Part shown: positions 40,422 to 47,553 of the stretch, piece by piece
Position numbering within the stretch: position 1 is the first letter of the stretch
Layout: each line of letters opens with the position of its first letter
Assembly: GCA_028864975.1 (NCBI GenBank)
Contig: JAGWLG010000001.1
Location: forward strand, 154,980 to 218,979
From: Thermoplasmata archaeon
Lineage (GTDB): Archaea > Thermoplasmatota > Thermoplasmata > Lutacidiplasmatales > UBA184
Length of the DNA stretch: 64,000 nt
Reading direction: 5' to 3'
The notes under the pieces: generated by a model
Seen by the model: only the letters and a program-made list of their open reading frames with translations
What the model was told of the DNA's origin: nothing
Databases searched by the model: none
Translations under genes and position numbers: made by a program

Positions 40422-41564
40422 TTGTCGGTCTTGGCACCCGAACGAACGTCCCGCGCCCCCTCGGCACCCTCGTCCTCGGACCACCGCCCCGCGCCTCGGT
40501 TCTCTGGCGCGCGGGAGCTCAAGGATGTACGCTACGCCGTCAGCGGGGGAGTAGCTCGAGTGACGCTCGACCGTCCCTCGTCTTACAATGCCTACACCAC
40601 CGGGACCCTGGAGGAGCTCGCGTGGGCTGTCCAGGAGGCCGCTTTCGATGACAAGGTCGGAGTGGTCGTTCTCACCGGCGCGGGCGAGCGCGCCTTCTGC
40701 ACTGGGGGTGATGTCAAGGAGTACGCCGAGCACTACACACGCCGTCCTCATGACTACTGGAAGTACATGGCCCACTTTGCCCGCGCCGTCGAGTCCCTTC
40801 TCTCGTGCGGGAAGCCCACGATCGCAAGGTTGAATGGCATCACGGTGGGGGGCGGCAACGAGCTCCACCTCGCCTGCGACCTCTCCGTCGCAGCCTCGCA
40901 CATCTATCTCGGCCAGGTCGGCGTCGGCGTGGGCTCGGTCGCGTGTGGCGGCGCGACCCAGTGGCTCCCCCTCGCGGTCGGAGACCGACGTGCGCGCAGG
41001 ATGCTCCTGCTCAACGAGCGCGTTCCGGCCCGACGGGCCGAGGAGTGGGGGCTCGTCTCCCAGGTCGTCCCCTCGGTGCGGGCGGGGGATAAGCTCCTCG
41101 AGGATCCCAGCGCGGAAGAGAGGGAGTTTGCCCTTCAGAGGAAGAACGGTTATTCGATCGACCTCGGCCCGCTCGACCGTGCCGTGGAGGAGCTCTCCCG
41201 CCAGCTGCTCGAGAAGTTCCCCGAGTGCTTGAGATACACCAAAGCCCAGACGAACTTTTGGAAGGAGCTCGCTTGGCACCAGACCGTGCCGCACGCGCAA
41301 GAGTGGCTCAGCCTGCATTTCGCTTCGCCCGAAGTGCACGAGGGCATGGGAGCCTTCGTCGAGAAGCGTCGGACCCAAGTCCCAGCCCTTCGCGAGCGAC
41401 GCGCCACCGGTGACGGCGCAGACTATTTCCACGGGCCGCTCACTTCGAAGTGCCCGAAGTGTGGAGCGGGCCATCTGCCCGAAGCGATGACCTTCTGTGG
41501 GTTCTGCGGAGCTCCGCTCCCACCTGCGGCCTCTTCGTCCCCCTCGGCCGGGGGGTCCCGATAG
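40422..41564 (+). CDS. oah: 6-oxocyclohex-1-ene-1-carbonyl-CoA hydrolase (Oah/BamA/BzdY-like) with C-terminal zinc ribbon
   Basis: Crotonase fold with Oah-type NAYTT, AFCTGGDVKEYAEHY, VGGGNE, GGATQWLP, KFPECL. Confidence 0.8.
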   Translation: MSVLAPERTSRAPSAPSSSDHRPAPRFSGARELKDVRYAVSGGVARVTLDRPSSYNAYTTGTLEELAWAVQEAAFDDKVGVVVLTGAGERAFCTGGDVKEYAEHYTRRPHDYWKYMAHFARAVESLLSCGKPTIARLNGITVGGGNELHLACDLSVAASHIYLGQVGVGVGSVACGGATQWLPLAVGDRRARRMLLLNERVPARRAEEWGLVSQVVPSVRAGDKLLEDPSAEEREFALQRKNGYSIDLGPLDRAVEELSRQLLEKFPECLRYTKAQTNFWKELAWHQTVPHAQEWLSLHFASPEVHEGMGAFVEKRRTQVPALRERRATGDGADYFHGPLTSKCPKCGAGHLPEAMTFCGFCGAPLPPAASSSPSAGGSR

Positions 41565-41572
41565 GAGGGGTC

Positions 41573-42904
41573 GTGGCCGGATCCAGCTCCACCCCAGCAC
41601 CCGGTCCCGCGGTTCCGTCGTTGACCGGTGCGGCGAGTTCGCCGGGATTCCTTCACGACGCGCGCGAACAGCAGCGCCAGATGGTCGACCGCTACTACGC
41701 GGAGCTGGACCAGGCAGAGAAGGAGAAGCGGCCGGTCGCCTACATGCTGGTCGGGGGGAACCTGACCGAGATCGTTCGCTCGTTCGGGTACGAGGTGGTC
41801 TTCCCCGAGATCGTCGCCCTCAACTGCGCGATCAAGCACAAGTCGCTCGACTACATCCTCCAGGCGGAGGCGCAAGGGTACGGGCTGGACGTCTGTGGCT
41901 ACGTGAAGAACGACCTTGGCCTGCAGGCCCTAGGAGGGAACACGCCTTTCGGGCACATCCCGAAACCCGACCTCCTCGTCTGCAGTTTCTCCGGTTGCTA
42001 CGTCTACATCAAGTGGTGGGAAGCGCTCGCCGAGACCCTCAACGCCCCGCTGTTCAACTTCGATGTCCCGTACCAGCGGACCGAGAAGCCGCTCAAGGAG
42101 GACATCGAGTACATGGTGGCGCAGCTCTGGGACTTCATCCACCTCCTCGAGAAGCGTACCGGTCGCTCCTTTGACATGGCGGAGCTCAAGCGGGTCCTGG
42201 AGCGCAGCCGTCGGGCCGAGGAGCTCTGGGTGAAGTACCTCGAGGCCGGCAAGCACCGCCCCTCCCCCATCGAGGCGTACTTCGAGGCGGTCTTCTACAT
42301 GTTCCCGATCAACGTCCTTCGGGGGACCGACCAGGCGGTCCGCTTCTACGAGACGGTCAACGCCGAGGTCGAGACCCGGGTCAAGGAAGGGACCTATCCC
42401 GTTCCGGAGGAGAAGGTCCGTCTCGTGGTCGAGGGCGTCCCTCCCTACACGAACTACCGGACTTTCTGGGACTTCTTCCGTAAGTGGGGCGCCGTCAGCG
42501 TGGCCGCGACCTATCCGAAGGTGGGGGGGCTCTTTGACATGGGGTTCTACCACGACCCGTCGCGCCCGCTCGAGAGCATCGCGGAGTACAGTCTTGGCGC
42601 CTATGTCAATCAGAACTGGCCGCTCCGTCGTCAGCTCATCCGGCAGTACATCAAGGACTACCAAGCGGACGCCGTCGTGATCCACGGGATCAAGTCGTGC
42701 CGGTCCTTCACGGCGGGCCAGGGGGACCTACGGGACTGGCTGATCCACGAGACAGGGACCCCCACGCTCTACCTCGAGTCCGACCACGAGGACCCGCGCT
42801 ACTTCGCCCCTGCACAGATCAAGAACCGGATGGACGCCTTCTTCGAGTCCTTGGACCAGCGCAGAAGTTCCGCGGCCGCGACCCCCGGGAGGTCTACCCC
42901 ATGA
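41573..42904 (+). CDS. bcrB: class I benzoyl-CoA reductase subunit B
   Basis: DVCGYVKND, SGCYVYIKW, RPSPIEAYF, RLVVEG, YPKVGG, IKSCRSFTAGQ, DPRYF, all recalled as BcrB-type motifs. Confidence 0.85.
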   Translation: MAGSSSTPAPGPAVPSLTGAASSPGFLHDAREQQRQMVDRYYAELDQAEKEKRPVAYMLVGGNLTEIVRSFGYEVVFPEIVALNCAIKHKSLDYILQAEAQGYGLDVCGYVKNDLGLQALGGNTPFGHIPKPDLLVCSFSGCYVYIKWWEALAETLNAPLFNFDVPYQRTEKPLKEDIEYMVAQLWDFIHLLEKRTGRSFDMAELKRVLERSRRAEELWVKYLEAGKHRPSPIEAYFEAVFYMFPINVLRGTDQAVRFYETVNAEVETRVKEGTYPVPEEKVRLVVEGVPPYTNYRTFWDFFRKWGAVSVAATYPKVGGLFDMGFYHDPSRPLESIAEYSLGAYVNQNWPLRRQLIRQYIKDYQADAVVIHGIKSCRSFTAGQGDLRDWLIHETGTPTLYLESDHEDPRYFAPAQIKNRMDAFFESLDQRRSSAAATPGRSTP

Positions 42905-46517: not shown

Positions 46518-46530
46518 GAGACGGCCAGCG

Positions 46531-47553
46531 ATGCGTGCCGCGGTGTTCTCCGGAAGCGGCGAGCCCCTCGCCCTTACGAACGTCCCCGACCCTTCGCCCG
46601 GTCCCGGCGAAGTCTTGGTCAAGGTCGCGGGCTGTGGCCTCTGTCATACCGACCTCCATTACCTCGACCATGGGGTCGCGACGGCCCATCCCCCACCGCT
46701 CATCCTGGGACATGAGATCTCGGGGACGGTGGTCGGGCACGGAGCGGGGGTGGAGGGCCCGAAGGCCGGAAGTCGCGTGCTTCTTCCCGCCGTCCTGCCT
46801 TGTGGCGCCTGTTCGCTCTGCCGGACCGGTCGTGGAAACATCTGCCCCAAGATGCGGATGTTCGGGAACCACATCGACGGCGGGTTCGCGGAGTTGGTCG
46901 TTGCGCCCGCCCACGAGGTCATCCCCCTCCCGGGCGACGTTCCCCTCGTTCGCGGCTCCATCATCGCAGACGCGATTTCCACCCCGTACCACGCGGTGGT
47001 CAACCGTGCCGCGGTGAGGGCGGGGGAGTGGGTGGTCGTGGTCGGATGCGGTGGTGTCGGGATCAACGCCGTCCAGATCGCCTCGGCGACCGGAGCCCAG
47101 GTCATCGCGGTCGACCTCGCTCGTCAGAAGCTCGACATCGCCTCCAAGGTGGGCGCGGCCGAGACCCTCGATGCCTCCCGAGTGCCTGACCTGGGAAAGG
47201 CCGTCCGGGCCATCACGGGGGAGGGGGCCGATGTCGCGTTCGAGGCGGTCGGGACTCCTAGGACGGTGGGGAGCGCAATCAGTACCCTGCGCCGAGGCGG
47301 TCGACTGTGCCTCATCGGGTACAGCGCCGAGAACGCCCCCATGCCCCTCAATAAGATCATGTTCCTCGAGTACACCATCATGGGGTCGTTGGGGTGTCGA
47401 CCGGTCGACTATCCTAAGGTGATCGACCTTGTACGACGCGGCAAGGTCCAGTTGGACCCCGTCATCTCTTCGGAAATACCTCTCGAAAGGATCGAGGAGG
47501 GTCTCGGTCGACTCCGACGAGGCGAAGGTCTCCGGACCATCGTCGTCCCCTGA
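46531..47553 (+). CDS. had: 6-hydroxycyclohex-1-ene-1-carbonyl-CoA dehydrogenase (Had/BzdX-like, Zn-ADH)
   Basis: GCGLCHTDLHY, LGHEISG, PAVLPCGACSLCRTGRGNIC, GNHIDGGFA; last gene of the operon. Confidence 0.78.
   Translation: MRAAVFSGSGEPLALTNVPDPSPGPGEVLVKVAGCGLCHTDLHYLDHGVATAHPPPLILGHEISGTVVGHGAGVEGPKAGSRVLLPAVLPCGACSLCRTGRGNICPKMRMFGNHIDGGFAELVVAPAHEVIPLPGDVPLVRGSIIADAISTPYHAVVNRAAVRAGEWVVVVGCGGVGINAVQIASATGAQVIAVDLARQKLDIASKVGAAETLDASRVPDLGKAVRAITGEGADVAFEAVGTPRTVGSAISTLRRGGRLCLIGYSAENAPMPLNKIMFLEYTIMGSLGCRPVDYPKVIDLVRRGKVQLDPVISSEIPLERIEEGLGRLRRGEGLRTIVVP

Follow-up and report, generated by a model that had tools for sequence, protein, structure and literature searches.

The stretch of DNA analysed here, referred to below as the window, comprises 64,000 nucleotides from a Thermoplasmata archaeon (contig JAGWLG010000001.1) and contains, at positions 40422–47553, seven genes for a putative class I (ATP-dependent) benzoyl-coenzyme A (CoA) reductase (BCR) and for three enzymes that could process its product. 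The interval is filled by seven tightly packed open reading frames (ORFs) on the + strand, in which neither frameshifts nor internal stops were found and whose codon-position GC contents are gene-like (GC3 of 0.79–0.88 vs GC2 of 0.42–0.52). The genes follow one another in the order oah-bcrB-bcrA-bcrD-bcrC-dch-had, with the reductase subunits arranged B-A-D-C, and are given here together with the resources used for each description:

40422..41564, + strand: Oah-like ring-cleaving crotonase (6-oxocyclohex-1-ene-1-carbonyl-CoA hydrolase-like) with a C-terminal zinc ribbon (NCBIfam TIGR03200)
41573..42904, + strand: BcrB-like catalytic subunit (substrate and [4Fe-4S]; MbdO/BzdO equivalent) (TIGR02260, PDB, tree)
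42901..43692, + strand: BcrA-like ATPase subunit, short form of 263 aa, MbdQ-like (Pfam BcrAD_BadFG, PDB)
43689..44495, + strand: BcrD-like ATPase subunit of 268 aa, MbdP-like (TIGR02261, PDB)
44496..45737, + strand: BcrC-like Fe-S subunit (MbdN/BzdN equivalent) (TIGR02263, PDB)
45756..46517, + strand: Dch-like crotonase, putative cyclohexa-1,5-diene-1-carbonyl-CoA hydratase (Pfam ECH_1, conserved position)
46531..47553, + strand: Had-like Zn-dependent dehydrogenase, putative 6-hydroxycyclohex-1-ene-1-carbonyl-CoA dehydrogenase (TIGR03201)

The start of bcrB was corrected to GTG 41573, which is preceded by GGAGG, lies 8 nt past the oah stop and agrees with the database protein P0001 (443 aa). 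Corrected starts were also assigned to bcrA (ATG 42901) and bcrD (ATG 43689), each of which forms an ATGA overlap with the stop of the preceding gene, and to bcrC, which begins at 44496, immediately past the bcrD stop; the TTG starts of oah (40422) and dch (45756) are uncertain by a few codons. The genes of the cluster are translationally coupled. Along the cluster, the Pfam domains are crotonase, HGD-D, BcrAD_BadFG, BcrAD_BadFG, HGD-D, crotonase and Zn-ADH, and the best benzoyl-CoA pathway models of NCBIfam are, in the same order, Oah, BcrB, BcrA, BcrD, BcrC, Dch and Had. The gene identities and the gene order proposed in an earlier note on this DNA were thus borne out by the ORFs, Pfam and NCBIfam, and the seven-gene cluster is real and intact. 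Gene content and intactness are direct observations, as are the family placement, the Fe-S ligands and the synteny reported below. Scans with Rfam and for tRNAs detected no RNA gene in the window.

Family placement of the reductase subunits and accessory enzymes

Between 41573 and 45737 two HGD-D proteins and two different BcrAD_BadFG ATPases, and so all four subunits, are encoded together. When the four proteins were compared with solved structures in the PDB, the subunits MbdO, MbdN, MbdQ and MbdP of 3-methylbenzoyl-CoA reductase (MBR) ranked first in every case, ahead of 2-hydroxyacyl-CoA dehydratases and their activators and of BzdNO. For the BcrB-like protein, MbdO scored 229 bits vs 140 for HadB and 112 for BzdO, and among the NCBIfam models TIGR02260 scored 361.8 bits (cut-off 487) vs 181 for HadB and 114 for BzdO. 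Similarly, the BcrC-like protein matched MbdN with 249.6 bits (HadC, 144; BzdN, 87) and TIGR02263 with 287 bits (cut-off 421; HadC, 155.5; BzdN, 77). For the BcrD-like protein TIGR02261 was the top specific match (163 bits, cut-off 313), and in the PDB it scored 205.5 bits with MbdP vs 171 with MbdQ. In the case of the BcrA-like protein, only the C-terminal half was matched by TIGR02259 (200 bits, cut-off 578), and MbdQ, a protein of 269 aa, scored 300 bits vs 232 for the HgdC activator. As MbdQ and MbdP are also about 270 aa long, a short A subunit is normal for the MBR type. By the likeness of its proteins, the predicted reductase is of the Thauera/MBR type and not of the Bzd type.

Alignments with BzdO, MbdO, MbdQ, MbdP and HgdC revealed the Fe-S ligands in the predicted subunits, namely three Cys in the B subunit, which align with Cys95, Cys128 and Cys380 of BzdO, and two Cys in each ATPase subunit for the bridging cluster. 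Both cluster Cys motifs were found in the BcrA-like protein (NDKCAAGTGRF and STCTVFAESE) as well as in the BcrD-like protein. Since such Cys ligands are common to dehydratases, they are necessary and not discriminating. Three Cys of the BcrC-like protein are aligned in MbdN, HadC and BzdN, and two further Cys in MbdN only. The active-site comparison was made with BzdNO, using the roles described for the residues of BzdO (PMC11971306), and most of the residues compared (the Cys ligands, Tyr97 and Tyr298) are shared with dehydratases and so do not discriminate either. In BzdO, Glu65 and His131 are the catalytic acid/base residues beside the cluster-bound water (PMC11971306). The His131 column is occupied by Tyr in the BcrB-like protein and by Phe in MbdO, a difference that may be type-specific, and a conserved Pro-Glu (FPE) of the BcrB-like protein lies two positions off the Glu65 column.

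The BcrB-like protein was searched against 1.84 billion cluster representatives, the top matches were classified with NCBIfam, and a careful IQ-TREE analysis of the B subunit was performed with 50 rows. Lower-ranked matches of this search were HadB-like. In the tree, all BcrB-like rows are split from the rows resembling 2-hydroxyacyl-CoA dehydratases with a support of 100/100, so that the branching with such dehydratases that the earlier note had named as a possible refutation was not observed. Canonical proteins scoring above the TIGR02260 cut-off (P0126, 630 bits and 45% identity; P0127, 815 bits and 43% identity) and an MbdO-like protein (P0137, 480 bits to MbdO) fall inside the BcrB-like clade. 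Within it, the MbdO-like group forms a clade of its own (100/100), which is sister to the remaining BcrB-like rows, the window protein among them. The window protein and its family group together at 100/99 and are joined by proteins from Heimdall- and Thorarchaeota, again at 100/99. The backbone between the subclades is weakly resolved, and the position of a paralogue clade present in some family members differs, being with canonical BcrB in a quick tree and with the clade of the window and Asgard proteins in the careful tree; no conclusion on donors or direction of transfer was taken from this unstable topology. A plasmid collection yielded only remote, dehydratase-like matches (24–29% identity).

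A reading in which the four subunits make up a 2-hydroxyacyl-CoA dehydratase and the activator belonging to it, serving amino-acid fermentation, while the crotonases and the dehydrogenase belong to ordinary beta-oxidation, can draw on the name "2-hydroxyacyl-CoA dehydratase family protein" given by NCBI to many close relatives, on Pfam domains that are common to both kinds of enzyme, and on the resemblance of the short ATPases to HgdC-type activators (232 bits). However, the HadB and HadC models reach only about half the score of the BcrB and BcrC models, the tree separates the two kinds of protein at 100/100, and there are two different ATPase genes, which match MbdQ and MbdP separately, instead of a single activator. 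Moreover, the conserved partners are Oah-, Had- and Dch-like, and dehydratase pathways typically involve a CoA-transferase and a 2-hydroxyacid dehydrogenase, neither of which is present. We regard a dehydratase as very improbable.

The company of the accessory genes is the strongest argument for a predicted aryl-CoA pathway. The Oah-like protein scored 198.6 bits with TIGR03200 (cut-off 464), followed by MenB (147 bits) and BadI (146 bits). Both the core (positions 34–224 of the model) and the Oah-specific extension (259–331) are matched, whereas positions 332–360 are not, and in place of the last 29 positions of the model the protein carries a zinc ribbon (window 41440–41530). Among the clade members inspected, archaeal and bacterial alike (L038, L082, L085, L090–L112, L123), the pattern CxxC-x12-13-CGxCG of this ribbon is kept. 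The Had-like protein matched TIGR03201 near full length with 275.9 bits (cut-off 338.65), 83 bits ahead of the next model (193 bits), and its gene is the sole one of its kind in the genome; from these matches its predicted identity is well supported. For the Dch-like protein, it is the conserved position between bcrC and had that points to its putative role.

We consider it likely that these genes specify a divergent aryl-CoA reductase of class I (ATP-dependent) and of the Thauera/MBR type, together with three product-processing enzymes. An enzyme of the same kind might also act on another substrate, either a substituted (methyl-, hydroxy-, halo- or amino-) benzoyl-CoA or a different unsaturated cyclic acyl-CoA, with the accessory enzymes handling the matching ring products. 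In keeping with this, the BcrB-like protein is just 43–45% identical to canonical BcrB and stands in a separate clade without a representative above the equivalog cut-off, its nearest solved relative is a 3-methylbenzoyl-CoA reductase, the Oah- and Dch-like proteins are far under their cut-offs, and the residue at the His131 column differs. Against it, Dch, Had and Oah are the exact accessory set of the pathway for the unsubstituted compound. The characterised enzymes of the Thauera type with activity on analogues are known to reduce benzoyl-CoA as well, and this too counts against a different substrate, which we judge to be an unlikely alternative.

Returning to the favoured aryl-CoA reductase, we infer its mechanism from characterised bacterial enzymes, and substrate, direction, electron donor and physiological role are inferred along with it. 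Electrons from reduced ferredoxin would first reach the [4Fe-4S] cluster held between the two ATPases, A and D, ATP hydrolysis would lower the potential of these electrons, and they would then pass through the Fe-S centre of the C subunit to the B subunit, where benzoyl-CoA or a close analogue would be reduced to the cyclic 1,5-dienoyl-CoA. The Dch-like hydratase would add water, the Had-like dehydrogenase would then oxidise the resulting alcohol, and the Oah-like hydrolase would open the ring to yield 3-hydroxypimeloyl-CoA, which would be passed to generic beta-oxidation enzymes encoded elsewhere in the genome.

Substrate activation, electron supply and energy metabolism

Several observations weigh against this assignment. 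All seven proteins score under the curated NCBIfam equivalog cut-offs and so fall outside strict equivalog membership; the placement of the reductase at the level of the clade holds. The generic activase model TIGR00241 scores higher on the BcrA-like protein (280 bits) than the BcrA model does, the Dch-like protein matches TIGR03189 with 116.2 bits (cut-off 292.5) and a generic enoyl-CoA hydratase model with 116.1 bits, and the Tyr at the His131 column departs from BzdO. To our knowledge, no member of this reductase clade has been assayed. In the genome, which is 89.6% complete, no benzoate-CoA ligase scored above the TIGR02262 cut-off, no phenylacetate-CoA ligase (PaaK) was found, none of the eight acyl-CoA dehydrogenases was above the cut-off for glutaryl-CoA dehydrogenase, and neither molybdopterin oxidoreductase (PF00384) nor sulfite/nitrite reductase (PF01077) gave a match. 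No ferredoxin gene was found inside the cluster or close to it. With a haem-copper oxidase as the sole terminal respiratory enzyme detected and no anaerobic one found, no anaerobic energy metabolism is evident that would pay for an ATP-consuming reductase. About 10% of the genome is unassembled, and the absence of a gene is therefore not proof.

The earlier note had stated that the window contains no CoA ligase, ferredoxin or lower-pathway genes, and searches with the proteins of the 64-kb window confirmed that none is present. When 80 related loci were inspected up to 8 kb from the cluster, neither a CoA ligase nor a ferredoxin was found except in Heimdallarchaeota LC_3, and a BLAST search of 95 related loci with the ligase and ferredoxin of Heimdallarchaeota LC_3 and the genome's own ligases gave no hit outside LC_3. 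AMP-forming ligases in the whole genome number three, an acetyl-CoA synthetase (Acs), a FadD/PimA-like protein on a short contig and a PRK06155-like protein (C119). The PRK06155-like ligase, which looks like a housekeeping enzyme of the whole family, occurs in 161 of the 180 family genomes (a tally that includes the unpublished genomes G171 and G173), whereas the reductase occurs in 64 of them; the ligase is thus distributed independently of the cluster. Conceivable activators that form the CoA thioester are also encoded, namely one family III CoA-transferase and one ADP-forming acyl-CoA synthetase. An alpha subunit of 2-oxoacid:acceptor oxidoreductase was found above its cut-off and is a possible source of reduced ferredoxin; indolepyruvate:ferredoxin oxidoreductase was rejected, its weak partial matches belonging to the general 2-oxoacid oxidoreductase. 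With the eight acyl-CoA dehydrogenases and three homologues of 3-hydroxyacyl-CoA dehydrogenase, the genome does possess generic beta-oxidation genes. The claim of the earlier note that the organism can degrade aromatics anaerobically is only partly backed and is overstated, given scores below the cut-offs and the failure to find a benzoate-CoA ligase or an anaerobic terminal reductase. Elsewhere (G000:C6:100360-101924, locus L125), a crotonase adjoins a di-iron protein that weakly resembles BoxB/PaaA (TIGR03225, 67 bits, cut-off 499); the pair may be what is left of an aerobic route through an aryl-CoA epoxidase, or a variant of it.

In a more far-reaching reading, archaea of soil and peat would use an oxygen-sensitive, ATP-driven ring reductase while respiring O2 at very low tension, instead of oxygenases, and the cluster would represent an uncharacterised, widespread environmental class I clade with its own zinc-ribbon ring hydrolase and an unknown route to the CoA thioester. 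This clade would span Thermoplasmatota, Asgard archaea, Acidobacteriota, Planctomycetota and Chloroflexota. The proposal is made because a haem-copper oxidase is the only terminal enzyme detected, because a hemerythrin and a U32 Fe-S protein lie upstream in the genus, and because no dedicated ligase or ferredoxin was found; we hold it to be quite doubtful.

Should the cluster be active, aromatic acids derived from lignin or Sphagnum could be removed under oxygen scarcity by uncultured archaea that are abundant in acidic soils and peat, a flow of aromatic-acid carbon under low oxygen that is usually credited to bacteria. The clade is a sizeable branch of the class I reductases, which perform a biological Birch reduction, and is known from sequence, with short ATPases and a zinc-ribbon ring hydrolase; expression of one representative would widen the knowledge of this class of enzymes.

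Host genome, neighbourhood and distribution of the cluster

With its 64 kb, the window makes up the end of a contig of 219 kb and has a uniform GC content. The assembly to which it belongs (3.6 Mb, about 67% GC, 89.6% complete, 1.9% contaminated) exceeds in size the relatives of the same family (1.6–3.0 Mb). A Thermoplasmatota host, as claimed in the earlier note, is supported by archaeal GatD/GatE encoded in the window and by the closest BcrB-like proteins, which have 74–91% identity and come from metagenome-assembled genomes (MAGs) labelled "Thermoplasmata archaeon"; one locus with 86% identity of the BcrB-like protein and flanks identical in kind is labelled Candidatus Lutacidiplasmatales. 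The Lutacidiplasmatales inhabit acidic soils, have a high GC content and are aerobic to facultatively anaerobic (PMC9287336). A haloarchaeal origin, suggested by the HTH_10 domain of a nearby regulator and the high GC content, was rejected, as the proteins are not acidic (isoelectric points of 5.4–9.2).

Bacterial MAGs from Acidobacteriota, Planctomycetota and Chloroflexota carry homologues at 50–54% identity, which might suggest that bacterial DNA was mis-binned or mis-assembled into an archaeal genome. However, the cluster shares its contig with archaeal GatD/GatE and the HTH_10 regulator, the GC content does not change across the window, and the order oah-B-A-D-C-dch-had, together with its flanks, recurs in about 50 related Thermoplasmata assemblies. 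Chimerism is excluded because these assemblies, which stem from many projects and include contigs of 0.77 to 2.3 Mb, keep the order unchanged; one of them is a chromosome of 2.18 Mb (OY970259.1). The bacterial or chimeric contig that the earlier note had allowed for is thus extremely improbable. The BcrB-like gene is present in 64 of the 180 genomes of the GTDB family, which also speaks against mis-binning, in 35 of the 67 high-quality genomes, in all seven genera and in 20 genomes of a 401-genome sample of the phylum, tallies in which one matching genome (G172) is unpublished; none of the conclusions rests on G171, G172 or G173. Within its Thermoplasmata family the cluster is a trait that is vertically kept and patchily distributed.

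In other orders, the same seven families are clustered in other Thermoplasmatota, in Acidobacteriota, Planctomycetota, Chloroflexota and other bacterial MAGs, and in Heimdallarchaeota LC_3. The order C-B-A-D-dch-had was seen in other Thermoplasmatota, among them a MAG (L101, 54% identity) obtained from a sediment core of the South China Sea. In Heimdallarchaeota LC_3 (L123, MDVS01000037.1, 1367–16754), an AMP-binding ligase, a protein of the aldehyde:ferredoxin oxidoreductase (AFOR) family and a ferredoxin lie directly upstream of C-B-A-D-dch-had. On the downstream side it has a short-chain dehydrogenase/reductase, a 3-hydroxyacyl-CoA dehydrogenase and an Oah-like crotonase, which makes this island fuller than that of the window.

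Some members of the family possess a second, paralogous cluster, with B subunits 43–45% identical, that encodes four BCR subunits and Oah/BadI-, Had- and Dch-like proteins. Such clusters are found at L031–L034 (G010:C26, G005:C37, G015:C64 and G020:C36), and G010 has both types. Their accessory genes are divergently placed, the Oah/BadI-like protein has 317 aa and lacks the long C-terminus, and a MaoC dehydratase and a 3-hydroxyacyl-CoA dehydrogenase are encoded nearby. Two loci labelled otherwise, L067 ("bacterium", DAIDCO010000026.1) and L085 ("Halobacteriales archaeon", CAYVGY010000091.1), carry the Thermoplasmata-type cluster in the lineage-specific order and with 67–77% BcrB identity; their labels are probably taxonomic mis-assignments of bins.

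Upstream of the cluster, one gene stands out as a candidate regulator:

37036..37884, - strand: HTH_10 transcription regulator, candidate cluster regulator (Pfam HTH_10, residues 217–268, E 5.7e-17)

The N-terminal part of this protein, about 215 aa, is without a Pfam match. A homologue (35–71% identity) stands beside the cluster in most related Thermoplasmata loci, and by this position the protein is a probable regulator of the operon. Immediately ahead of the cluster (window 37949–40282) lie genes for a divergent chorismate mutase, a U32 family protein and a hemerythrin. This trio is conserved within the same genus (L021–L023; L036–L039), and several further genera of the family have a U32 homologue (63–67% identity) close to their cluster (L040, L048, L059, L063, L064, L069, L073). 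Several further ORFs of the window (47691–48104, 50193–50951 and 54230–57386) have a gene-like codon-position GC and no Pfam match, including one of 686 aa at 55326–57386 on the - strand.

Relation to known reductases and earlier reports

In the earlier note, the pathway was thought to be restricted among archaea to Archaeoglobales, a view that is outdated. Genes for ATP-dependent BCR were reported between 2019 and 2021 in Asgard archaea, namely in MAGs of Loki-, Thor- and Heimdallarchaeota (10.1101/763623) and in Hermodarchaeota (PMC8163825), and in 2022 in the Thermoplasmatota order Ca. Yaplasmales, the latter being, according to the authors, the first such report for the phylum (PMC9239135). 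The clusters of Ca. Yaplasmales and of the Asgard lineages were, like the present one, predicted from their genes. The description of the Lutacidiplasmatales does not mention benzoyl-CoA or aromatics (PMC9287336), and a literature search found no paper linking this lineage to benzoyl-CoA. Assigning the pathway to the Lutacidiplasmatales lineage may thus be new, whereas the kind of finding is already known, clusters in archaeal MAGs having been reported since 2019.

Among solved enzymes, the MBR/Mbd type (3-methylbenzoyl-CoA reductase MbdONQP; PDB 9g87 and 9gai) is the top match for all four subunits (MbdO, 229 bits; MbdN, 250; MbdQ, 300; MbdP, 205). Both of its ATPases are short (269 and 273 aa vs 263 and 268 aa in the window) and have the same cluster-binding Cys motifs as the window proteins. 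The similarity of the catalytic subunit is only moderate, however, and the window differs in its order B-A-D-C and in being flanked by oah and dch-had.

With the Thauera aromatica system, BcrCBAD with Dch, Had and Oah (TIGR02259–02263, TIGR03189, TIGR03200 and TIGR03201), the window shares all four subunit families and all three families of downstream enzymes. In contrast to canonical BCR, all window scores are under the cut-offs, BcrB is 43–45% identical, and the A subunit has 263 aa whereas canonical BcrA is long (432 positions in the model, 446 aa at a canonical locus). The canonical order is C-B-A-D, not B-A-D-C, and the window Oah-like protein departs from the canonical TIGR03200 model in ending with a zinc ribbon.

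The BZD type (BzdNOPQ; PDB 8s02; PMC11971306) belongs to the same enzyme class and overall fold family, and its three catalytic [4Fe-4S] Cys align with those of the window protein. It differs in its low scores (BzdO 114 and BzdN 77 bits in NCBIfam, 112 and 87 bits in the PDB) and in the His131 of BzdO, which is replaced by Tyr, and alignment of the BcrC-like protein did not confirm the six-Cys [8Fe-9S] pattern of BzdN. The 2-hydroxyacyl-CoA dehydratases (HadBC/HadI and HgdAB/HgdC) have in common with the window system the Pfam domains HGD-D and BcrAD_BadFG and an ATP-driven electron activation, but form a separate clade (100/100), reach about half the scores and lack both the heterodimer of two ATPases and the Oah/Had/Dch context.

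Among the predicted class I BCRs of uncultured archaea, the BcrB-like proteins of Heimdall- and Thorarchaeota are the sister group of the window's clade (100/99) with 57–63% identity. The AMP ligase, ferredoxin and AFOR-family protein encoded beside the reductase genes in Heimdallarchaeota LC_3 have no counterpart at the window locus. The lineage of the window, in turn, is a soil and peat group with a relative labelled Ca. Lutacidiplasmatales, and the order oah-B-A-D-C-dch-had is specific to it.

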